Shown here: one piece after another, positions 7,191 to 51,862 of the stretch
Numbering within the stretch: the first letter of the stretch is position 1
Layout of the letters: the number at the start of each line of letters is the position of its first letter
IMG/VR virus record: IMGVR_UViG_3300037067_027616
Span: 160,001 to 224,000 of that record
Strand: one strand, 5' to 3'
DNA from: a virus
Taxonomy: Duplodnaviria > Caudoviricetes
Length of the DNA stretch: 64,000 nucleotides
Made by a program: the position numbers and the translations under genes
Notes under the pieces: generated by a model
The model's database searches: none
What the model was told of the DNA's origin: nothing
Seen by the model: the letters and a program-made list of their open reading frames with translations, nothing else

Positions 7191-7251
7191 AACAGCCTAC
7201 CTGTAAAAGTGACTTACAGGTAGGCCAGAAAATTAAGAGGTAATTATTCGA

Positions 7252-8487
7252 CTATTTTGCTGATGGGTACTTGTAGATGTCCCCTAAATAATTTTTCAAA
7301 AACGTCTGTGTGGAATTGTGGTGTACCTCATTGTCGTCCATGATAGGTACCTTGCCTCCCCCTCCCGGGGCGTCCACCACGTAAGTAGGCACTGCGTACC
7401 CACTTATCCGTCCGCGCATGTCGGACACTATCTTCCTGCCTGTTGCGATCATTGTTCTGAAATGGCTGGATCCAAGTATCGGATCGCATTGGTATAGATA
7501 ATATGGTCGTACGCGCCGGCGCATCAACTCCGTGCACAATTTGCTTATAACAGACACGTTGTCGTTGATACCTTTAAGAAGGACTGTTTGGCTCCCCAAC
7601 GGGATACCTGCATCGGCAAGCATGGCCAATGCCTGTGTGGATTCATTCGTAAGTTCATGTGGATGCGTGACATGCACGCTCATCCAAACAGGATGGAACT
7701 TGGAGATGAGCTTGCACAACGCCGGGGTTATTCTTTGGGGGAGTACCATAGGCACCTTCGTACCTATCCTGATAACCTCTACGTGTGGTATGCTCCGGAA
7801 TAGTTCTAACAATTTGAAAAGGCGGGCGTCAGTCATTGTGAGAGGGTCACCACCAGAGAGTATAACATCCCGCACTTCTGGATGTTCCCTGACGTAATCT
7901 GCGCACCTTTTCCACCTTGCCTCGTCTGGCCTTGCACACGAGGATCTTCCACCCACCAAACGAGACCTGGTGCAGTACCGACAATAACAGGAACACATGT
8001 CGGTGGTCATGACGAGGACTCTATCAGGATAACGGTGCACGAGTCCGTCAACGGGAGATTGTTTGTCCTCGTGCAAGGGGTCACTTTCCTCCCCTTCAGA
8101 GAATAATAGTTCCATTTTGCTTGGAACCATGCACTTTCGTAAGGGGTCGTTTCTGTCGTTTGGATCCATCAAAGACAAGTAATAGGGGGTAACAGCCATA
8201 GGCATATCTGCCTCATGATCTGTATCCCATTCGGAAAAACCGAATTTTTTCAAATCTGATGTGCTTCTAACGGTATTGCGGATTTGCCATCTCCAATCGT
8301 TCCAATCTTTATTAGAGGACTCTGGGAAGTTCCTCTCACGGAACGATGCCGTTTTTATCTTTTCTTCTTGTATGGTTGTTGTAAGGGTACTACCCGGAGG
8401 CTCCGAGTATGAAACTTCGTCCGAACCCATCTTTCTACACTCCTTGTGTGCTTGCCTTAAGCTGTCAATCGTTACTGCAAAATACAC
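7252..8487 (-). CDS. kamA: KamA-family radical SAM lysine 2,3-aminomutase
   Basis: HRYPDRVL, CSCYCRYCTR, SGGDPL, PYYLYQCD, DAPGGGGKVP. Confidence 0.92.
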   Translation of the reverse strand: MYFAVTIDSLRQAHKECRKMGSDEVSYSEPPGSTLTTTIQEEKIKTASFRERNFPESSNKDWNDWRWQIRNTVRSTSDLKKFGFSEWDTDHEADMPMAVTPYYLSLMDPNDRNDPLRKCMVPSKMELLFSEGEESDPLHEDKQSPVDGLVHRYPDRVLVMTTDMCSCYCRYCTRSRLVGGRSSCARPDEARWKRCADYVREHPEVRDVILSGGDPLTMTDARLFKLLELFRSIPHVEVIRIGTKVPMVLPQRITPALCKLISKFHPVWMSVHVTHPHELTNESTQALAMLADAGIPLGSQTVLLKGINDNVSVISKLCTELMRRRVRPYYLYQCDPILGSSHFRTMIATGRKIVSDMRGRISGYAVPTYVVDAPGGGGKVPIMDDNEVHHNSTQTFLKNYLGDIYKYPSAK

Positions 8488-15846: not shown

Positions 15847-16131
15847 TCAATATTCGTAATGTCCACGATCTTGATCACGCTCTTCTCTATCCCGGCGGCT
15901 CTTCCTCTTCTGCGGGAATTTGTCGAGCATCGCCTTCCTGATTGCATCCTTACGTTTCCGGCGTTTCTGCTCACTCGGTTTCTCGTACGAGCGCCTCTTC
16001 TTCAGTTCTGCGAGGATACCTGCGGACTCGGCGACCCTTTTGAACCTCCTGAGCATCCTCTCGATATTCTCCATACCGCCCTTGGTGTCTACTACTCCGT
16101 ACATTTTTGCTCCTTTGAATGTGTCCTTCAA
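15847..16131 (-). CDS. rpsU: Ribosomal protein bS21
   Basis: ENIERMLRRFKR...GILAELKKRRSYEKPSEQKRRK. Confidence 0.88.
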   Translation of the reverse strand: MKDTFKGAKMYGVVDTKGGMENIERMLRRFKRVAESAGILAELKKRRSYEKPSEQKRRKRKDAIRKAMLDKFPQKRKSRRDREERDQDRGHYEY

Positions 16132-17042
16132 GCCCTGCGCATCAAATCCGATACGAGGTGCTTTACTACTGGTGGTGGAAAACCGTTTCCTATACCCTCG
16201 AGCATTTTCGTCCTCGAAAGTACATTAATATCATATTCGTCACCGAGTCCTTGCAACCTCGCCGCAAGTCTGGGGCCACACATGTGAAGTTCCCCCGAGG
16301 GCATGACCACAACCCCATAAGGAACCCCTCGTTTGTAGTTGCTGACTACCGTACCAGCCACCACGTCAAAACGTAACGGTGGATGTCTCTTGCACCTTTT
16401 CGGGTCGCGAAACCAATACTTTTTCTCGTTGTAACTCATGGGACGCGTCAAAGGTTGCGTGTCCTTTTCAGGAGAATCGTAGAGATATTCCCGGACAAGG
16501 CTGGGTTTTTCCCAAGGTTCCTCCGGGTATGTCACGTTCCACTGTATCTTTTTAGAGCAGAGCATAACAACACGGCGCCTGTTCTGCGGCACACCATAAT
16601 CATAGCAGTTTATTTCTTGGCAGTCTACTGCGTACCCGCGTGCTTTCAAATCATTTATTATGGTACATAAATAGCTTTTAAACCGCGAAAGCCCAAAGCT
16701 GTTCTCGATAAGTACGTGATCCGGGTTGCACCGATCAATTGCCCTGAAGAAATGCGGGAAGGTGTTGCGTGAATCGTCTTCCCCCTTTGTGCCAAATCTG
16801 TTGGCACCTGGGGAAAAAGCCTTGCAGACGGGACCTCCGCTGAGAAGGTCACATTCAGTTATCTCGTATTTGTCGACATCTGCGCATATAGCTACGGGAC
16901 TGAGGTACATTGGTTGGCTGTTGTAGGCTTGCACAAACTTCGGGTCGATCTCGCAAGCCCCGACTACATTGGCCCCTGCCTGTGTCATACCCCAAGAGGA
17001 TAGTCCTACGCCAGAGAAGATTTCGACTACACGCATGCTCAC
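16128..17042 (-). CDS. C5 DNA cytosine methyltransferase
   Basis: EIFSGVG, GGPVCKAFS, IEN, YGVPQNRRRV, ARLQG, IGN. Confidence 0.85.
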   Translation of the reverse strand: MSMRVVEIFSGVGLSSWGMTQAGANVVGACEIDPKFVQAYNSQPMYLSPVAICADVDKYEITECDLLSGGPVCKAFSPGANRFGTKGEDDSRNTFPHFFRAIDRCNPDHVLIENSFGLSRFKSYLCTIINDLKARGYAVDCQEINCYDYGVPQNRRRVVMLCSKKIQWNVTYPEEPWEKPSLVREYLYDSPEKDTQPLTRPMSYNEKKYWFRDPKRCKRHPPLRFDVVAGTVVSNYKRGVPYGVVVMPSGELHMCGPRLAARLQGLGDEYDINVLSRTKMLEGIGNGFPPPVVKHLVSDLMRRA

Positions 17043-20223: not shown

Positions 20224-21111
20224 CTACAGGATGACGATTCTGACATCAGGTACTCCCGCAGGATCCGCCTCTATGACTGCGGCGATTAGTTTGGAGGTTT
20301 CCACCCACGGGTGTCTCATGAGGTAGTCTTCTCTCATGGTTTCCATCCTCGAGGGGTCGATGACGGCGGCGGACAGATACTGTCCAGGTTGCACGACAAC
20401 GGTTCTGCCGATGGTGGCTGTACGTATTTTTGTCCTCCAGGGGCATTCATGTATGTGTCCGGACAATACCATGTACGGCTGCTTTTCCTCAATCCATTCT
20501 TTGATGGCGTTTGACCCGACCTCGCGGCCATCTATGCACACATCCAACCCGACCAATTTGGGAGGGGAATGTATGGCTATTATCTCGTTCGGCTTCGCCT
20601 TTCTCGACCGCAAATCATCTTCGATGGTGCCTTTTTTTCGGAAGTATTCTTTCACATCTATTATGGGTACCAACCCGTGTTCGGTGTCTTCTGTGGGTAT
20701 CTGTATATACGATTCAGGTTTCCACCCCTTGTGGTCATACTTGCAGGCGGTCTTCAACCCGAACGGATAGTCAGGCACGTACGGGTATCCAGTAAACGTA
20801 AACCCCTCGAAATCGATGGGTTTCTCATCGATGAGATCCCCGCATCTTTCCCGGTAGAGGGGTTTGCGTGTCCACAAGTCATCATTGCCAAACATGGCCA
20901 TGAACTTTATGTCCTTATCTCCGCACTTCTTGATGAACCCCGGCAAGAATTTCTTTATGAATTCCTTCTGCCGCGGTTGCATGGAGTAACCTTTTGGGAG
21001 TATGTCGGCTCCCACGTGAAGGAGTTTTGCTCCTTCAGTTACGCATAAATCGAGAGCCTTTGCGTACTTCCCCTCATCCCCATGTAAATCTGTGGCATAA
21101 ACGAACTTCAT
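20224..21111 (-). CDS. Metallophosphoesterase (calcineurin-like)
   Basis: TDLHG, GAD, GNDD, HSPP, SGHIHE. Confidence 0.88.
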   Translation of the reverse strand: MKFVYATDLHGDEGKYAKALDLCVTEGAKLLHVGADILPKGYSMQPRQKEFIKKFLPGFIKKCGDKDIKFMAMFGNDDLWTRKPLYRERCGDLIDEKPIDFEGFTFTGYPYVPDYPFGLKTACKYDHKGWKPESYIQIPTEDTEHGLVPIIDVKEYFRKKGTIEDDLRSRKAKPNEIIAIHSPPKLVGLDVCIDGREVGSNAIKEWIEEKQPYMVLSGHIHECPWRTKIRTATIGRTVVVQPGQYLSAAVIDPSRMETMREDYLMRHPWVETSKLIAAVIEADPAGVPDVRIVIL

Positions 21112-21137: not shown

Positions 21138-21166
21138 AATATACTATTTTGAATATCTTTTGTCAC
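21138..21166 (-). promoter_or_regulatory. Possible internal promoter within tRNA block 1
   Basis: GTGACA-17-TATATT. Confidence 0.45.
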
Positions 21167-23624: not shown

Positions 23625-23671
23625 AAAACTTAAAGGCCCCCGTCCGAATCTCTCCGGGCGGGGGCCTTCTG
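23625..23671 (-). terminator. Attenuator terminator of tRNA block 1
   Basis: AAGGCCCCCGCCCGGA-gaga-TTCGGACGGGGGCCTTT followed by AAGTTTTT. Confidence 0.85.
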
Positions 23672-23690
23672 GTTTTCGCTATGGGCTTGT

Positions 23691-23813
23691 TCAGCCCTTC
23701 AGAAGTCCCCCGCCGTAACTATCCCACGTGAGGTGCAAATACGACAGTCGGCATGCGGCTATCGCTTGCACGTTTGTGGATGATCCGGTTAGTAAGGACT
23801 CTCTGCGTTTCAT
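23691..23813 (-). CDS. Leader peptide 1 (MKRRESLLTGSSTNVQAIAACRLSYLHLTWDSYGGGLLKG)
   Basis: AGGAG SD; lies between promoter and terminator; 3' end holds the antiterminator strand; contains the exact codon for all 20 downstream tRNAs. Confidence 0.88.
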   Translation of the reverse strand: MKRRESLLTGSSTNVQAIAACRLSYLHLTWDSYGGGLLKG

Positions 23814-23835
23814 TTGAAAACTCCTGATGGCTCCA

Positions 23836-23864
23836 AATATACCACACAAAAATGGTTTTGTCAA
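23836..23864 (-). promoter_or_regulatory. Promoter of tRNA block 1
   Basis: TTGACA-17-TATATT with extended -10 TG. Confidence 0.88.
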
Positions 23865-24561: not shown

Positions 24562-25224
24562 TTATTGCGAGGGACTATAGATTCCTTTGTCCACTATGAA
24601 AGCGAGAACCATACTCGAGAGTCCTGCTTTCAGTATCCCCGGCACGGGGGTGGTCCTGTCCTTCCACGTATGCAATGCCTCGCGTGCTTTCGTGGATGAC
24701 ATGTCGGGTGTGGCCAGGCCCTCCAGATACCTGTGACCACCGGTGGTGTACCATGCCCCGGGGATGTGAACGTATCCCGGCCGTGGCACAACGATAAACG
24801 ATGCGAAGATCCGCAGTTCCTCAAAGTGCTTCCACCTGCCAAAATCGAGGGCATTGTCCAAGCCTATGACGAATTTGAAGGTCACATCTTCGTAGTCGCC
24901 GGCGAGGTTCATGGCCGTCTTCATGGTGCTGCCGTCATCCCAACAGGACCACCGTTTGGCGACTTCAAACTCGAAGTCGCTGACGATTATGCGCTTCTCT
25001 CCTTCAGGCACGGCGAGTGTACACAATTTCACCCGTTCGGAGAAGTCTGTCATGACCTTGCCGAAACAATGATCGATGCACGGCATCAGCCATACCTCAT
25101 CCACCTTGAGTGTCGGGTTGTTGAGTATCCCCAAGGCAACATCGATGTGTCCCGTGGTCGGCGGGTCGAAAGATCCCCCGAACACAGCCACCACCTTGGT
25201 CGGTTTTTTATCCGTGACGGTCAT
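24562..25224 (-). CDS. nadD: Nicotinate-nucleotide adenylyltransferase
   Basis: VFGGSFDPPTTGH, VWLMP, VIGLDN...W, VPRPGY, MSST. Confidence 0.88.
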   Translation of the reverse strand: MTVTDKKPTKVVAVFGGSFDPPTTGHIDVALGILNNPTLKVDEVWLMPCIDHCFGKVMTDFSERVKLCTLAVPEGEKRIIVSDFEFEVAKRWSCWDDGSTMKTAMNLAGDYEDVTFKFVIGLDNALDFGRWKHFEELRIFASFIVVPRPGYVHIPGAWYTTGGHRYLEGLATPDMSSTKAREALHTWKDRTTPVPGILKAGLSSMVLAFIVDKGIYSPSQ

Positions 25225-26180: not shown

Positions 26181-26269
26181 TGGTAGGTCCGGGTGGAATT
26201 GAACCACCGTTTACCTTTCGGCCCCTTGCGTATCAGACAAGTGCTCTAACCGGGCTGAGCTACGGACCT
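26181..26269 (-). tRNA. tRNA-Ile(GAT) with an unusual long variable arm
   Basis: Loop CT-GAT-AC; GCC-GAAA-GGT extra arm; CCA. Confidence 0.85.
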
Positions 26270-26276
26270 GCATATA

Positions 26277-26369
26277 TGGTAGCGGGGGCAAGATTCGAAC
26301 TTGCGACCTCCGTTAGGAAGTTCTGGCTTATGAGGCCAGTGACTTAGACCTGCTCTAGTCTACCCCGCA
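26277..26369 (-). tRNA. tRNA-Met(CAT), initiator-like acceptor, long variable arm
   Basis: T1:T72 mismatch, GCGGGG stem, loop CT-CAT-AA, CCA. Confidence 0.82.
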
Positions 26370-28516: not shown

Positions 28517-28553
28517 AAAAAACCCCACCGATCCTTTTGGGCCCGGTGGGGTT
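28517..28553 (-). terminator. Attenuator terminator of tRNA block 2
   Basis: AACCCCACCGG...TCGGTGGGG followed by TTTTTT. Confidence 0.88.
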
Positions 28554-28578
28554 CAGAATGCTAACGAGTCCACCGGGC

Positions 28579-28650
28579 TTACATGGCAATATCCATGCTA
28601 TCAAAGTCGATAGCGCTGAAGATAATGCTGATGCCGATGGTAGTACGCAT
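28579..28650 (-). CDS. Leader peptide 2 (MRTTIGISIIFSAIDFDSMDIAM)
   Basis: AAGGAG upstream; rich in ATC/AGC/TTC/GAC/ATG; antiterminator directly follows the TAA. Confidence 0.88.
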   Translation of the reverse strand: MRTTIGISIIFSAIDFDSMDIAM

Positions 28651-28683
28651 TGAAAGTATTGCTCCTTTTACGACGTTGGGCAT

Positions 28684-28712
28684 AATATACCACGGATTTA
28701 GAAGATTGTCAA
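28684..28712 (-). promoter_or_regulatory. Promoter of tRNA block 2
   Basis: TTGACA-17-TATATT with extended TG. Confidence 0.88.
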
Positions 28713-35860: not shown

Positions 35861-35937
35861 TGGTGCGCCCGGTGGGATTTTAACCCACGACCATCGGTTT
35901 TAGAGACCGTCGGCTCTACACGCTGAGCTACGGGCGC
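35861..35937 (-). tRNA. Amber suppressor tRNA (CTA anticodon)
   Basis: GCGCCCG acceptor, GCTC/GAGC D stem, CGGT-CTCTAAA-ACCG, T loop TTAAAAT, CCA. Confidence 0.82.
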
Positions 35938-38169: not shown

Positions 38170-38246
38170 TGGTCGGGGCGACTGGATTCGAACCAGCGAC
38201 CACTTGGACCCCATCCAAGTGCCCTACCAGACTGGGCCACGCCCCG
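38170..38246 (-). tRNA. tRNA-Pro(GGG)
   Basis: CGGGGCG acceptor, loop AT-GGG-GT, CCA. Confidence 0.92.
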
Positions 38247-38261
38247 ACGATATCACGTCAT

Positions 38262-38666
38262 TCAACCCTTAACGAGTTCGAGCAAATGGGTACACGGCTT
38301 ATTTTCGGAGTGTTCCGATACGACGCACCCGCATACAGTGCATATGATAGTTTTCGGCTTCAAAGGGCAGGTTATGACACGGTCATATGCTTTTAACAAC
38401 TCTTTTACCAAGTTTGGCTTATGCATTACCAAATTCTCCTTCTCATTTTTTGAGAACTTCTTGATGACGCATTCTCTTTTCAAAGCCGCGCTGCGACTGC
38501 TACACTCCTCCACGTGTACAAGCCTTACTGGCAGTCCCAAGGCCTTCACCGATCGGGCACCTTTACCGGCGTTGTGGGTGGCGACCCTGCGTGGTACGTC
38601 ACAGGTCATTCCCGTGTAGAGAGCGCCTTTGGAGCATCGGACCATGTAGACGTACCAAGATTTCAT
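38262..38666 (-). CDS. GIY-YIG nuclease (YhbQ-like)
   Basis: WYVYMVRC..G.LYTG.T....R...HN.GKGA, RSAALKRE. Confidence 0.88.
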   Translation of the reverse strand: MKSWYVYMVRCSKGALYTGMTCDVPRRVATHNAGKGARSVKALGLPVRLVHVEECSSRSAALKRECVIKKFSKNEKENLVMHKPNLVKELLKAYDRVITCPLKPKTIICTVCGCVVSEHSENKPCTHLLELVKG

Positions 38667-38684
38667 AGAGCCTCATTTAAAAAA

Positions 38685-38786
38685 GATTTGGCGGCTTGCC
38701 CCGTCATGTAGTGGCTGCACCACGGCTGCCACCCTTGGGTGTCTAATCCGGCTTTTTGGTCGCCTCACCGGCAGGGCCGCCAAACC
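38685..38786 (-). ncRNA. Rod-shaped RNA, possibly divergent 4.5S/SRP-like
   Basis: 11-bp terminal stem; A-rich asymmetric loop; apical TAGAC-ACC-CAAG-GGT-GGCAGCC. Confidence 0.35.
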
Positions 38787-38808
38787 CTGTATGACTTTCC
38801 TTTCAAGA

Positions 38809-38884
38809 TGGCTGGGGCACGAGGGGTCGAACCTCGGACCTTCTGATTCAGAGCCAGACGCTCTACCAACTGAGCTATGCCCCA
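38809..38884 (-). tRNA. tRNA-Gln(CTG)
   Basis: TGGGGCA acceptor, loop CT-CTG-AA, CCA. Confidence 0.92.
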
Positions 38885-38892
38885 CTGTATTC

Positions 38893-38967
38893 TCGGGACA
38901 CTCGGATTCGAACCGAGAGTCTCGCGGACCCGAACCGCGCGCGTTAGCCAGGTTACGCTATGTCCCG
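38893..38967 (-). tRNA. tRNA-Pro(CGG)
   Basis: Loop TT-CGG-GT; no encoded CCA. Confidence 0.9.
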
Positions 38968-39050
38968 TTGTAATCATTGCAGAGGTACCATACCCGTTTC
39001 GGTTTTTCGACCCTTCAGGTACGGCGTGGTATGATACCTCTACATCTTAC

Positions 39051-39126
39051 TGGCTGGGGTGGCAGGACTCGAACCTGCGACACCGACCTTCAAAGGGTCG
39101 TGTTCTAGCCACTGAACTACACCCCA
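39051..39126 (-). tRNA. tRNA-Gln(TTG)
   Basis: Loop CT-TTG-AA, CCA. Confidence 0.92.
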
Positions 39127-39133
39127 TCATATT

Positions 39134-39212
39134 TGGTCGGGATGACTGGATTCGAACCAGCGACCCCTTGCTCCCAAGGCAAGTGCTCTAAACCAGACTG
39201 AGCTACATCCCG
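39134..39212 (-). tRNA. tRNA-Pro(TGG)
   Basis: Loop CT-TGG-GA, CCA. Confidence 0.93.
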
Positions 39213-39686: not shown

Positions 39687-39777
39687 TGGCTGGCACGGAG
39701 AGATTTGAACTCCCGATGGGCTTTCGCCACGGCGGATTAACAGTCCGCTGCCTTAGACCAAACTAGGCTACGTGCCA
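39687..39777 (-). tRNA. tRNA-Asn(GTT) with a long variable arm
   Basis: Loop CT-GTT-AA; GGC-GAAA-GCC extra arm; CCA. Confidence 0.87.
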
Positions 39778-39801
39778 TTGTGTCCTGTCAAAGAACAAAA
39801 G

Positions 39802-39838
39802 AAAAACCCCGGCGATCCTTTCGGTCCGCCGGGGTCTT
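39802..39838 (-). terminator. Attenuator terminator of tRNA block 3
   Basis: ACCCCGGCGGACC-GAAA-GGATCGCCGGGGT followed by TTTT. Confidence 0.88.
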
Positions 39839-39859
39839 GTGTTCTGGTCTTCAGTTAAT

Positions 39860-39940
39860 TCAGAGCGTGCGACCGAACCCCAACGGACTTTTGTTCCGCG
39901 GTTGCTGATTGGGGTTTGGGTTCTGAACGAACAAAAACAT
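39860..39940 (-). CDS. Leader peptide 3 (MFLFVQNPNPNQQPRNKSPLGFGRTL)
   Basis: AGGAG SD; CAG/CAA/AAC/CCA/CCC/CCG cluster; contains the antiterminator strand. Confidence 0.88.
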   Translation of the reverse strand: MFLFVQNPNPNQQPRNKSPLGFGRTL

Positions 39941-39962
39941 GGTTTATTCTCCTGTGGTGTTA

Positions 39963-39991
39963 AATATACACCTATCGGGACAAATTGTCAA
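39963..39991 (-). promoter_or_regulatory. Promoter of tRNA block 3
   Basis: TTGACA-17-TATATT. Confidence 0.88.
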
Positions 39992-41218: not shown

Positions 41219-41704
41219 CTACCCGTGCGCAAGATCGTCACGCACCTTCGTGAGGGTCTGCCCGAGCCAGTTGGTGCCTTTCCAATTCTTTGGGTCGTCA
41301 CACAGGGTCGACTTCCAATGGAGTCCGATGCCCCAGATGCAGTCTTGGGGGCTTGCCTCAACGATCGTGCGGGTGCCTGTCGACAGAAGTTCCTCCTTCA
41401 AATCCTTGTTCTGGCTGTACTTGGCCAAACACCCCTTGTACATGATGTCGAGAGCCTTGCCGTCCCATGTGTCCTTGTCGAATCCGCGTACGGCACGGCC
41501 GCATTGCTTTTGATAACCGGGATCATCGGAGGACATGATCTCGTTGAGCGTCTCTGTATCTCCGAACATGCGGGCCTTCTCGGCCATGAGATACTGCTCG
41601 GAGCAATTGTACTTGATGCCGTCGACCTCGAACCCGCAAGGGTGCCAATTGCTGAACGAGCACCCTTTTCCCCAGAAGAACACATACTTGTCGGTCATCC
41701 TCAT
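41219..41704 (-). CDS. NADAR (YbiA-like) family protein
   Basis: FSNWHP, SEQYLMAEKA.MFGD, GRAV.GF, EASP.D.IWGIG, G.NWLG. Confidence 0.92.
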   Translation of the reverse strand: MRMTDKYVFFWGKGCSFSNWHPCGFEVDGIKYNCSEQYLMAEKARMFGDTETLNEIMSSDDPGYQKQCGRAVRGFDKDTWDGKALDIMYKGCLAKYSQNKDLKEELLSTGTRTIVEASPQDCIWGIGLHWKSTLCDDPKNWKGTNWLGQTLTKVRDDLAHG

Positions 41705-45910: not shown

Positions 45911-45953
45911 CAAAACAAGAAGGCCCCCGGTGACTTTGTCATCCGGGGGCCTT
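45911..45953 (-). terminator. Attenuator terminator of tRNA block 4
   Basis: AAGGCCCCCGG-ATGAC-aaa-GTCA-CCGGGGGCCTT followed by CTTGTTTT. Confidence 0.85.
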
Positions 45954-45980
45954 AAACCTATTGTGAAGAGATTGAATAGG

Positions 45981-46046
45981 CTACACGACCCCCGATGGCG
46001 TCACCCGGCGCTTGGATACGACTCGTTTTGCCTTCAGTGAGAACAT
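45981..46046 (-). CDS. Leader peptide 4 (MFSLKAKRVVSKRRVTPSGVV)
   Basis: AAG/AAA/GTC/GTA/CGG/CGC/CGA cluster; contains the antiterminator strand. Confidence 0.85.
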   Translation of the reverse strand: MFSLKAKRVVSKRRVTPSGVV

Positions 46047-46071
46047 GGTGCCTTTTTCCCTTCAAAAACAT

Positions 46072-46100
46072 AATATACCACAACCTGACAGGTTTGTCAA
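46072..46100 (-). promoter_or_regulatory. Promoter of tRNA block 4
   Basis: TTGACA-17-TATATT with extended TG. Confidence 0.88.
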
Positions 46101-46708: not shown

Positions 46709-47464
46709 CTATTCCTTTTTATCTTCAGGTATTAAGTCTTCCTTAATAAGCGCCCGGTGCCTGACCTGGCTGTCCAAATGCCACTTTCCTTCCCTGTTCG
46801 ACATGCGTAAAACTTCACAGTTGTAGGGGTTTCTGACGGTTTCATAGTATTCGACAGACCAATGAAACCAGCGCATGAGGAAAAGTCTCATCGTGAGTCC
46901 GTGCGTGACGATGAGGCAAACCCTGGGAAAATCCGGCTTATCGAAATCTCTCCAGAGTGTGTCCATGAAGGTGGACAAGCGGTCATAGACATCAGCCCCT
47001 GATTCTCCATCGGGGATCCTGTAGAAGAACGTGCCAAACTTGTCACGTTCTTCCTCGATCTTTTTTGAAACATCGGCGTCCTTGTAGTTTCCCCAATCCT
47101 GCTCGCGCAACCGCGGGTCGAACGTTTCGCTTGCGATGTGGACATAGTATGGTTTATGGAGTAAATCTTTTATTCTTCCTGTGTGCGTGTGAATACCATC
47201 GAACAAAAGCCTCCAGACGGTATGCCACGTTTGTTTGGTCCGCTCATATGGCGAGCAATATGCGGCGATTTCCGGCGGGTCGATGCCTTTGGGGAATTCG
47301 TGAACGAGATCGTCTTTGATGTAAATGCCTGCGGTAACAGCCTGCTGACGACCGAAATCGGTGAGAGGTATCTTCCAATCAGGGACGGTCTTCAAAAGAT
47401 CCCAATTCACGTTCGCTTCAGACTGACCGTGCCTTATGAGATATATGAATTTTGGAGGAGCCAT
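46709..47464 (-). CDS. Histidine phosphatase (phosphoglycerate mutase family)
   Basis: LIRHGQS, SPY.RT.QT, LREQDWG, GES..DV..R, VTHG. Confidence 0.9.
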   Translation of the reverse strand: MAPPKFIYLIRHGQSEANVNWDLLKTVPDWKIPLTDFGRQQAVTAGIYIKDDLVHEFPKGIDPPEIAAYCSPYERTKQTWHTVWRLLFDGIHTHTGRIKDLLHKPYYVHIASETFDPRLREQDWGNYKDADVSKKIEEERDKFGTFFYRIPDGESGADVYDRLSTFMDTLWRDFDKPDFPRVCLIVTHGLTMRLFLMRWFHWSVEYYETVRNPYNCEVLRMSNREGKWHLDSQVRHRALIKEDLIPEDKKE

Positions 47465-47482
47465 AGTGCCTCTTTTTTTATT

Positions 47483-47557
47483 TGGTATCCTCACCGGGAA
47501 TCGGACCCGGATCTAGAGTTTAGGAAACTCTTGTTCTGTCCGTTGAACTATGAGGAC
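47483..47557 (-). tRNA. tRNA-Arg(CCT)
   Basis: Loop TT-CCT-AA; atypical T loop TCCGATT; CCA. Confidence 0.88.
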
Positions 47558-49382: not shown

Positions 49383-50063
49383 TTATGCCAAATCACTTAT
49401 AAAGCCTTGATTATACCGCTTATATGATGTTCGTCTTCCGTTGGAGTGGTTCACGACCATGTCATCTCGCACCCGTATAGTACGGACCTTGTCACCCCGC
49501 ATACCACTTCCGACCTGCCCTCGCCTGGCATCATTCACGTTTCCGGTCACTTTTGACGTGAGCCTGTGGTGGATCCTCTGGCGCAACACGCTCATCGCTT
49601 GTTCCTTATTTTGGTGCTGGCTACGCTCCGATTCGCATCTCACAATAATGCCCGTCGGGATGTGCTTCACCTGTACGGCAGAATCCGTCACGTTTCGGTG
49701 TTGTCCGCCTTTTCCGGAACCGCGCGCTATTGAGATCTCTATGTCACTACACGGTATGTCCACCTTTACCCCGGGGATCTCTTCGAGGACGGCCACTGTG
49801 ATGGTGGAAGTCTGTACACGGCCGCGCTTCTCTGTCGGAGGTATCCTTTGCCACCTGTGACCGCCCGGCTCGTTCTCAAACGTTCTTGCGGCGTCTTCTC
49901 CCGATATTTTGATGCAGACGTAACCTGGTCGCATCTCCAGGACACGCATCTAATATCCCTTCAAAACGCACACCTTTCCATAAATCCTGAACTGATCTTC
50001 AACTAAAAGCTTTGCATCGTCTCCGCCTTCGGCGGCTCTGATTTCCACTATGATTGATTGCAT
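49383..50063 (-). CDS. Short RF1-like peptide chain release factor with in-frame TAG at codon 38
   Basis: GGAGG SD, MQSIIVEIRAAEGGDDAK...KGY*MRVLE..., E.G.HR.QRIPPTE..GRVQTS, GGQ, SQ..NK. Confidence 0.85.
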
Positions 50064-50324: not shown

Positions 50325-50359
50325 GAAAAAACCCCGCCAGGCTTGGCCTGACGGGGTTT
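50325..50359 (-). terminator. Attenuator terminator of tRNA block 5
   Basis: AAACCCCGTCAGGC-caa-GCCTGGCGGGG followed by TTTTTT. Confidence 0.88.
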
Positions 50360-50381
50360 GTGTATAAGTACAATACTCCCG

Positions 50382-50441
50382 TCAGGTGGGTATTCTTCCC
50401 TCCCTACCTTCTTCAGCTATTCTGACGGTTGCGTTTATCAT
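50382..50441 (-). CDS. Leader peptide 5 (MINATVRIAEEGREGRIPT), near-leaderless
   Basis: ATG about 10 nt from the -10 box; ATA/AGA/AGG/GAA/GAG/GGA/GGT cluster; antiterminator overlaps the TGA. Confidence 0.85.
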   Translation of the reverse strand: MINATVRIAEEGREGRIPT

Positions 50442-50450
50442 AGGATATTA

Positions 50451-50479
50451 AATATAACACAAAAAAACGGTGTTGTCAA
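50451..50479 (-). promoter_or_regulatory. Promoter of tRNA block 5
   Basis: TTGACA-17-TATATT with extended TG. Confidence 0.88.
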
Positions 50480-50956: not shown

Positions 50957-51862
50957 TCATTTTAGATACGTGTAATCTACCTGCTTGGACAGTTGTTCGC
51001 CTATCTCGATGTATTGGCTCATGTATTTGACCCCGTCCATGATGTCCATTTTAGGGTCAAGGTCGTATTTTTCAAGTCTTTGAAAGGTAAAATCTTGATA
51101 TTGCCCGGCTATTCCGGACAATATTTCTTCGTTAGTTCTGTCACATTGTCTACGTGCAAGTCCACCGTCCATGGGACTCATGAAATAGTAGAGTTGCCGG
51201 AGAGCATTGTAACTAGATGCCTCTTTATAGGACATGGAGAACGGGGACTCCCCGCATCCGAGGGACAACATGTGTACCTGTTCGTTTTTGAGCCAATCCA
51301 AGCGGCAGGCCTCTACGTAGGCCTCTACGGTCGGGCTGCTCATGTTACCGGTTCCTCCGTCAAGCCACACAGCGTTTCCTGCTTTGTCTTTGATGGATCC
51401 AAAATAATAAGGCGCGGCGTAGCTCCTGGACAAGGCTTCAAGTACAGTAAGTTCACCGTCTTTTTCTTCCCAAGACTTGAAGAAGTGTGTCCTTCCGTCC
51501 ACCATATTCACGCTGGTGCAGACAAAACGTGTTTCGCAATTCTTCATCCTGAACTCTCCGCCGACGTGATAACGTATGAGTTCGTCTAACGGCGTGCGGC
51601 TGTATTTATTTCCGATGAACGGTATGTGCGTTTGTGGAGTGAACACTTTAGGTATGGCCGACAGCAACAACGGGTAGAACGTTTCCATTCGGAGGGCGCC
51701 TGTGGATAGCACTCCGCCGATTATTGCACCCACGGAAGATCCCCAAACAAGGTCGAAAACCTCGTGTATTTCCTTGCCGAGGACGCGAACGATGTTGGAG
51801 AGTATCGTGGCAGCAATGGGACCCTTGGCGCCGCCGCCGTCTATTACCAAAATGCGCTTCAT
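50957..51862 (-). CDS. Patatin-like phospholipase
   Basis: DGGGAKG, GSSVG, AAPYYF, DGG. Confidence 0.9.
   Translation of the reverse strand: MKRILVIDGGGAKGPIAATILSNIVRVLGKEIHEVFDLVWGSSVGAIIGGVLSTGALRMETFYPLLLSAIPKVFTPQTHIPFIGNKYSRTPLDELIRYHVGGEFRMKNCETRFVCTSVNMVDGRTHFFKSWEEKDGELTVLEALSRSYAAPYYFGSIKDKAGNAVWLDGGTGNMSSPTVEAYVEACRLDWLKNEQVHMLSLGCGESPFSMSYKEASSYNALRQLYYFMSPMDGGLARRQCDRTNEEILSGIAGQYQDFTFQRLEKYDLDPKMDIMDGVKYMSQYIEIGEQLSKQVDYTYLK

Follow-up and report, generated by a model that had tools for sequence, protein, structure and literature searches.

Described attenuators and the layout of unit C

The closest described systems are the leader-peptide attenuators of enterobacteria (trpL, hisL, leuL, pheL, ilvGMEDA and thr), in which a promoter-proximal open reading frame (ORF) containing control codons is followed by the alternative RNA pairings 1:2, 2:3 and 3:4; the general mechanism is summarised in PMC1183508 and pheL is described in PMC3082878. 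Some of them are multivalent, such as the leaders of ilvGMEDA (Ile, Val and Leu) and thr (Thr and Ile), and contain several kinds of control codon. T-box riboswitches (RF00230) also sense tRNA status and choose between a terminator and an antiterminator; however, they bind one uncharged tRNA directly and work ribosome-free. E. coli pheM-pheST has an attenuator with a leader rich in Phe codons that controls phenylalanyl-tRNA synthetase; its target thus belongs to the translation apparatus, and it responds to the decoding of the cognate codon. Large tRNA clusters, interspersed with small genes and homing-endonuclease-like genes, are found in T4 and in huge phages. Why phages carry tRNA genes and how the expression of these genes is controlled are open questions; phages have been proposed to use these genes to compensate for codon usage, to replace host tRNAs that have been degraded, or to escape defences that cut tRNAs.

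The window analysed here is a stretch of 64,000 nucleotides (positions 160001-224000) of a single-contig phage genome of 466,729 bp with 49% G+C. It shows an array of 47 tRNA genes, all on the minus strand and located from 13901 to 50277, with small protein genes interspersed, as in the T4 and huge-phage clusters. Five leader units (A-E) together cover the 47 tRNAs, the limits of each block being inferred from the position of the next promoter.

Unit C is encoded on the minus strand, as are all its parts. The promoter scan found a -35 hexamer TTGACA (39986-39991) and a -10 hexamer TATATT (39963-39968), which form a sigma-70 consensus promoter with 11 of 12 matches and a 17-nt spacer; a consensus promoter likewise heads all four sister units. 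By direct reading, a Shine-Dalgarno sequence AGGAGA (39948-39953) lies 7 nt 5' of the ATG of a leader ORF of 26 codons plus TGA (39860-39940), which has homologous ORFs in the related contigs L052 and L041. Codons 6-16 of this ORF (39893-39925) are the putative control codons. Segment 1 (39895-39916) pairs with segment 2 to form a predicted protector or pause hairpin of -14.3 kcal/mol; segment 2 (39876-39888), within codons 18-22, is the 5' strand of the predicted antiterminator, and segment 3 (39824-39836) is both the 5' arm of the terminator and the antiterminator partner. The intrinsic terminator (39797-39838) consists of a hairpin at 39838-39803 (-25.5 kcal/mol) and a U-rich tail. The first gene 3' of the leader, 20 nt past the U tail, encodes a tRNA-Asn with anticodon GTT (39687-39777), and it is followed by tRNA-Pro TGG, tRNA-Gln TTG, tRNA-Pro CGG, tRNA-Gln CTG and tRNA-Pro GGG, with a GIY-YIG gene among them (38170-39212).

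The order of unit C is therefore promoter, Shine-Dalgarno sequence, short ORF, 1:2 hairpin, 2:3 antiterminator, 3:4 terminator and tRNA genes, and its leader combines several kinds of control codon as the multivalent leaders do. The first-pass annotation had read this stretch as an attenuator with its ends at 39991 and 39802, which correspond to the start of the -35 hexamer and to the end of the first U run of the terminator, and the attenuator reading is supported in silico, since all its sequence-level features are present and correctly placed. On the basis of these features and of the folding model presented below, unit C is probably a transcription attenuator of the ribosome-mediated, leader-peptide type, which would act as the gate of a phage tRNA operon.

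The locus differs from the enterobacterial operons in its target. The genes behind leader C are tRNAs and small phage ORFs, with no amino-acid biosynthesis enzymes or synthetase among them, so that the phage leaders would regulate the tRNAs that read the control codons instead of biosynthetic enzymes, and the loop would close on tRNA supply. Furthermore, the phage leaders carry up to 20 codon types, belong to a virus, and show no sequence or Rfam relation to the enterobacterial leaders. The pheM-pheST leader is comparable with unit C as a leader-peptide attenuator with a target in the translation apparatus; however, it responds to one amino acid and controls a synthetase in a cellular operon, in contrast to blocks of 6 to 20 tRNA genes in the phage. 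Rfam covariance models run on the whole window at gathering scores matched only tRNAs. The 231 nt of unit C gave only sub-threshold Rfam matches, driven by the terminator hairpin; the score of His_leader was 16 bits (E = 1.8), where the cut-off is 49, and no amino-acid leader family reached its gathering score. Among papers searchable in full text, which come from few subscription journals, we found none that describes the control of tRNA genes, or of phage tRNA arrays, by a leader peptide. The mechanism itself is classical; the novelty lies in a target made up of the very tRNAs that decode the control codons, in leaders that resemble an inventory, and in the occurrence in a virus.

Codon content of the leaders and the tRNA blocks

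The codons of leader C agree with those given in the first-pass annotation: 10 of the 11 codons from 6 to 16 encode Gln, Asn or Pro, and the only exception is a conserved CGG Arg codon that interrupts the control run. The Pro codons used are CCA, CCC and CCG (the last one twice), CCT is absent, and both Gln codons are present. ARAGORN identified behind the leader the tRNAs Asn-GTT, Pro-TGG, Gln-TTG, Pro-CGG, Gln-CTG and Pro-GGG, and all six have an exact Watson-Crick cognate codon in leader C. When each leader codon was assigned to the tRNA that reads it, by exact match first and by wobble second, 11 of the 25 internal codons of leader C belonged to its own block (binomial P = 2.7e-5) against a background of 0.109, which is the frequency of block C codons in long ORFs on the gene strand. 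Nine consecutive codons (6-14) are read by downstream tRNAs, and the other two frames contain only 3 and 4 own-block codons in 24. Against the attenuator reading stand the fact that fewer than half of the codons of leader C are own-block and the Arg codon within the control run.

The four sister units, also on the minus strand, have promoters that start at 50479, 46100, 28712 and 23864 and show the same design with other codon sets. Unit A (50329-50479) has a 19-codon Glu/Gly/AGR-Arg leader with promoter and terminator, and precedes two tRNAs for Glu, one for Met, Arg-TCT, three for Gly and Arg-CCT. Unit B (45914-46100) shows a Lys/Val/CGN-Arg leader followed by two tRNAs for Lys, two for Val, Arg-CCG and Arg-ACG, and unit D (28520-28712) an Ile/AGC-Ser/Phe/Asp/Met leader followed by tRNAs for Phe, Asp, Met (two), Ile and Ser-GCT. 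The leader of unit E (23627-23864) has 40 codons, which include the exact cognate codons of all 20 downstream tRNAs. In the leader-by-block matrix of the five units, the diagonal counts are 8, 9, 11, 15 and 24, with a total of 67 of 124 codons. When tRNAs were shuffled among blocks, the total fell to 28.8 +/- 4.9, and the highest value among 5000 trials was 49, so that none reached 67; in addition, the true pairing of leaders and blocks is the best of the 120 permutations (67 versus 52 for the next best). An exact cognate codon is found in the own leader for 43 of the 47 tRNAs, and for 45 when wobble is included; the two that have no own-leader codon even with wobble are Gly-CCC and an amber-suppressor tRNA.

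These statistics bear on the explanation that the arrangement is a coincidence, that is, a chance ORF or a gene for a small functional peptide next to an ordinary terminator or processing hairpin unrelated to tRNA identity. Short ORFs and hairpins are common, and the promoter and terminator scans gave about as many sites regionally as in shuffled sequence; however, the codon-match and frame statistics stand against chance, and the design recurs five times in this genome and again in independent phages with matching codon sets. A terminator that follows a consensus promoter by about 150 nt and ends 20 nt short of the first gene has attenuation as its only obvious role. Genome-wide, 56 sites match the promoter consensus with no more than one mismatch, and 11 of them have a strong U-tailed hairpin within 50-280 nt; the five strongest of these 11 hairpins (-22.6 to -31.2 kcal/mol) are exactly those before the tRNA blocks. 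We consider a coincidence of this kind highly improbable. The six other pairs of promoter and hairpin (-15 to -19 kcal/mol; genome coordinates 193193, 381292, 265850, 114549, 102924 and 66113) have no tRNAs behind them, and could be other attenuators or short transcription units.

The codon match is also specific of the reading frame. Across the five leaders, 68 of 124 codons match in frame, whereas the two remaining frames give 24 and 23 matches in 119 codons each, which argues for reading by a ribosome rather than for direct RNA pairing. Direct pairing is the basis of a T-box-like riboswitch, in which leader triplets would pair with the anticodons of uncharged tRNAs and stabilise the antiterminator with no ribosome involved. 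Like the mechanism proposed for unit C, such a device senses tRNA and selects either a terminator or an antiterminator, and the leader does contain triplets that could pair with the anticodons of the downstream tRNAs. However, these triplets share one frame, with a Shine-Dalgarno sequence and ATG at its start and a stop codon beside the antiterminator, an arrangement that speaks against a mechanism without ribosomes. Furthermore, the folds show no Stem I or specifier-loop architecture, and the T-box model RF00230 gave no match at gathering scores in the window, while neither it nor any other riboswitch matched unit C at E-values up to 10. A T-box-like mechanism is thus very unlikely.

Alternative pairings and ribosome position

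The whole fold of leader C has an energy of -61.3 kcal/mol (z = -3.7 versus dinucleotide shuffles), and the minimum-energy fold of the full-length unit is the 1:2 hairpin together with the 3:4 terminator. Taken separately, the pairings 1:2, 2:3 and 3:4 have energies of -14.3, -26.1 and -25.5 kcal/mol. The antiterminator between 39888-39876 and 39836-39824 forms 13 bp including G-U pairs, as described in the first-pass annotation, with an energy of -23.5 kcal/mol. When the leader was shuffled 300 times, the most stable 16-mer duplexes formed with the terminator arm had a mean of -11.5 +/- 2.7 kcal/mol, and one of the 300 equalled the observed antiterminator.

The effect of a translating ribosome was modelled by masking the RNA to a point 12 nt beyond the first base of the codon in the A site and folding what remained as far as the terminator loop. 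When codons 6-14 of leader C occupy the A site, 12 of the 16 bases of the terminator 5' arm are predicted to pair upstream; on codons 15-18, the number is 9-11, and from codon 21 to the stop codon it is none, the modelled ribosome on the last codons covering segment 2. In the same model, all five units show the 5' arm sequestered when the ribosome is on own-block codons and freed when it is on the last 3-8 codons, and in each unit the own-block codons stop just short of the point where the antiterminator is lost, a geometry known from the trp and his attenuators (PMC1183508).

In the mechanism that we propose, host RNA polymerase would start at the consensus promoter and a ribosome would translate the 26-codon leader during transcription. 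If the Gln, Asn and Pro codons were decoded fast, the ribosome would reach the 3' third or the stop codon of the ORF and cover segment 2; with segment 2 masked, the 3:4 terminator would form and transcription would end 20 nt before tRNA-Asn. If a matching tRNA were scarce, uncharged or damaged, the ribosome would linger on codons 6-16 and cover segment 1, and the free segment 2 would pair with segment 3, so that no terminator would form and the Asn, Pro and Gln tRNAs would be transcribed. With the new tRNAs, ribosomes would pass through the leader faster and the unit would close again, which would constitute a negative feedback on tRNA supply, and the other four tRNA blocks would be controlled by the same device with different codon sets. 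Candidate triggers are a mismatch of host and phage codon usage, amino-acid starvation and the loss of host tRNAs to nucleases. Translation of the leader, the response of termination to tRNA supply, the extents of the transcription units and the physiological trigger are what we infer from this layout.

With no ribosome and with segment 4 omitted, the alternative antiterminator is favoured in four of the five units, and therefore the default untranslated state is ambiguous. This result would also be expected of a general sensor of translation capacity, in which any global slowdown would lead to read-through and codon composition would play a minor part, and leader E, with mostly single copies of its codons, should respond weakly to a mild limitation of one tRNA. 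However, the codon sets differ from unit to unit and track the blocks, here and in unrelated phages, the codon signal is frame-specific, and in the model the own-block codons lie exactly where a stalled ribosome leaves the antiterminator free. A general capacity sensor is accordingly improbable, although less so than the two alternatives discussed above, and codon-specific attenuation is the reading that we follow.

If this is true, the expression of phage tRNAs is driven by demand, and classical attenuation is extended from metabolite supply to tRNA supply; the leaders would be natural, compact sensors of how fast specific codons are decoded, and they could find a second use as reporters. More tentatively, and with somewhat less than even confidence, the five leaders may jointly act as a codon-by-codon decoding test and a self-tuning translation supply, in which each block is switched on only if its codons are undecodable and off once the need is filled. 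The causes of such a need could be an ill-fitting host tRNA pool, or anticodon-nuclease defences or a phage shut-off that cut or deplete host tRNAs.

Relatives, independent phages and the tRNA array

A related phage, the fragment L041 of IMG/VR record G001, was identified through a small protein gene that immediately follows tRNA-Asn; in this relative the tRNAs are grouped in the same blocks A, B and C; blocks D and E are absent from this fragment. Its C leader (7237-7317) maintains the run of Asn, Pro and Gln codons, segment 2 and the terminator arm, while codons 1-5, the loops of the hairpins and the end of the ORF differ from those of the window. An exact search of metagenome contigs for the conserved leader core found a longer contig of the G001 phage (L051) and a closer relative (L052/L053), whose control codons 6-16 are identical to those of the window and whose flanking codons differ. 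The control-codon stretch is thus nearly invariant across the three unit C homologues, and the segment 1:2 stems are invariant, with a loop that varies in the G001 homologue; in all these copies (L052/L053, and L041 and L051 of G001), control codons and alternative pairings are kept and the flanks have diverged. A degenerate search for the leader core matched only G001. No match was found in an exact search of viral contigs for the terminator sequence, no related loci were found using the upstream rubrerythrin-like protein as query, and blastn of 6 kb around unit C against cultured phages gave tRNA-sized matches only.

The G001 phage also has homologous A, B and D leaders, and its leader-by-block matrix is diagonal too (9.5, 12, 11 and 14). 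Its unit D has a terminator and an antiterminator that have each diverged in sequence from those of the window and maintain their mutual complementarity; the antiterminator is shifted across the stop codon, from just after it in the window to just before it in G001, and is still inside the footprint of a terminating ribosome. This paired divergence is the strongest comparative support for the predicted switch. The modelled dependence of the antiterminator on ribosome position is likewise seen in most of the relatives' units, with occupancy profiles that are approximate for the B and C leaders of G001.

Two relatives show differences at tRNA-Asn. In G001, a 141-codon ORF (L041:7377-7802) is inserted between the unit C terminator and tRNA-Asn, and an attenuator there would thus gate a protein gene too. 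In L052, about 190 nt are inserted in the anticodon loop of the tRNA-Asn that follows the leader (minus strand, about 310-577 of the reverse complement), and ARAGORN makes no call for this split tRNA; a group I intron was considered as the insert and discarded, as it gave no Rfam match.

The two Glu tRNAs of block A flank a gene (49383-49949, minus strand) for a truncated release-factor-like protein of 188 aa, which comprises the end of a PCRF domain and an RF-1 domain. Homologues of this protein were found at 40 other huge-phage loci with 37-57% identity, many of them with tRNA arrays. Leaders in these relatives were searched for with a fold-based terminator search and, separately, with a codon test that ignores terminators. 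Leaders of unrelated sequence match their own blocks in at least six of these more distant phages (L014, L021, L010, L019, L027 and L029), whose release-factor-like proteins are 42-50% identical to that of the window, and the best P values were 3e-7 and 1e-6 over 2604 ORF-by-block tests. In the folding model, the antiterminator depends on ribosome position in most of these units as well. The three leaders of L014 have own-block counts of 15, 24 and 10 (rows 15/5/5, 2/24/2 and 1/6/10): a Leu/Ser/Tyr/Cys leader precedes five tRNAs for Leu, one for Cys, three for Ser and one for Tyr; an Asn/Ala/Thr/Gln/Pro/Gly/His/Phe/Arg leader precedes exactly those tRNAs, and the third leader precedes tRNAs for Trp, Met, Lys, Arg, Glu, Asp, Val, Ile and Gly. 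In L021, five consecutive AGA/GAG/GAA codons lie before Glu-TTC and Arg-TCT, and a second leader with Thr, Leu, Phe, Val and Gln codons (18 of 29) lies before tRNAs for these five amino acids.

The arrays of L009, L017 and L018 show a plain promoter-like motif and no leader, which indicates that the device is optional and not universal. The conserved motif of these three phages (L009:2900-2961, L017:4470-4526 and L018:4250-4307) consists of GTGAAACA, about 20 nt and then TAGAGTATGGTTC, directly 5' of the first tRNA, and may be a different, phage-specific type of promoter.

Among cultured phages, Caulobacter phage phiCbK (JX100813) has annotated rho-independent terminators directly before three tRNA blocks. 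Two of the three are preceded by short ORFs enriched in the amino acids of the block, and the match of the third is weak; the units lie at about 49540-49770 and 51340-51500. One of the two ORFs, the annotated gp083, which is rich in Ser, Leu, Pro and Lys, precedes two tRNAs for Pro, two for Lys, three for Leu and two for Ser. The sigma-70 consensus promoters and the phiCbK layout make the idea experimentally accessible now. If the joint decoding-test reading were true, it would describe a general and previously undescribed way in which huge, phiCbK-like and other phages sense and repair a tRNA shortage.

Several features of the array concern individual units. The ATG of leader A (region 50439-50451, minus strand) is 9 nt past the -10 hexamer and has no Shine-Dalgarno sequence, and for this reason the mRNA is possibly leaderless; the G001 homologue of leader A shows a normal Shine-Dalgarno sequence, GGAGGAG. 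Unit D has a long spacing between Shine-Dalgarno sequence and ATG. The stop codon of leader B is TAG in the phage of the window and in both relatives. In block A, a near-consensus promoter (49277-49249, minus strand) with no leader lies directly 5' of tRNA-Met (CAT) and is conserved in G001 (L050:6435). This promoter may keep what is possibly an initiator tRNA constitutively expressed, and it could be a bypass of attenuator A for the tRNAs behind it; promoter-like sites at 21166 and 17807 inside block E could likewise bypass unit E.

Some of the tRNAs are themselves unusual. The tRNA-Asn behind leader C (39687-39777) has 91 nt, and a tRNA-Ile-GAT (26181-26269) and one CAT tRNA (26277-26369), both on the minus strand, have 89 and 93 nt; all three show apparent long variable arms that are atypical for their identities. 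The amber-suppressor tRNA (CTA; 35861-35937, minus strand) is located about 2.2 kb past the last Pro tRNA of block C, and its positional counterpart in G001 is an ochre suppressor (TTA; L041:13307; L051:6534). Stop-codon recoding was considered for the amber suppressor and rejected, since the standard code gives 95% ORF coverage and reading TAG as sense brings no regional gain. A tmRNA (genome 422973-423321) and two further tRNAs are encoded outside the window and far from the array, respectively.

Finally, the protein genes among the tRNAs, all on the minus strand, include those for a C5 cytosine methylase, a metallophosphoesterase, a cytidylyltransferase-like protein, a GIY-YIG nuclease, a NADAR protein and a protein of the histidine phosphatase family (16128-17042, 20224-21111, 24562-25224, 38262-38666, 41219-41704 and 46709-47494). 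Some of these proteins may act on RNA ends or in ADP-ribosylation.
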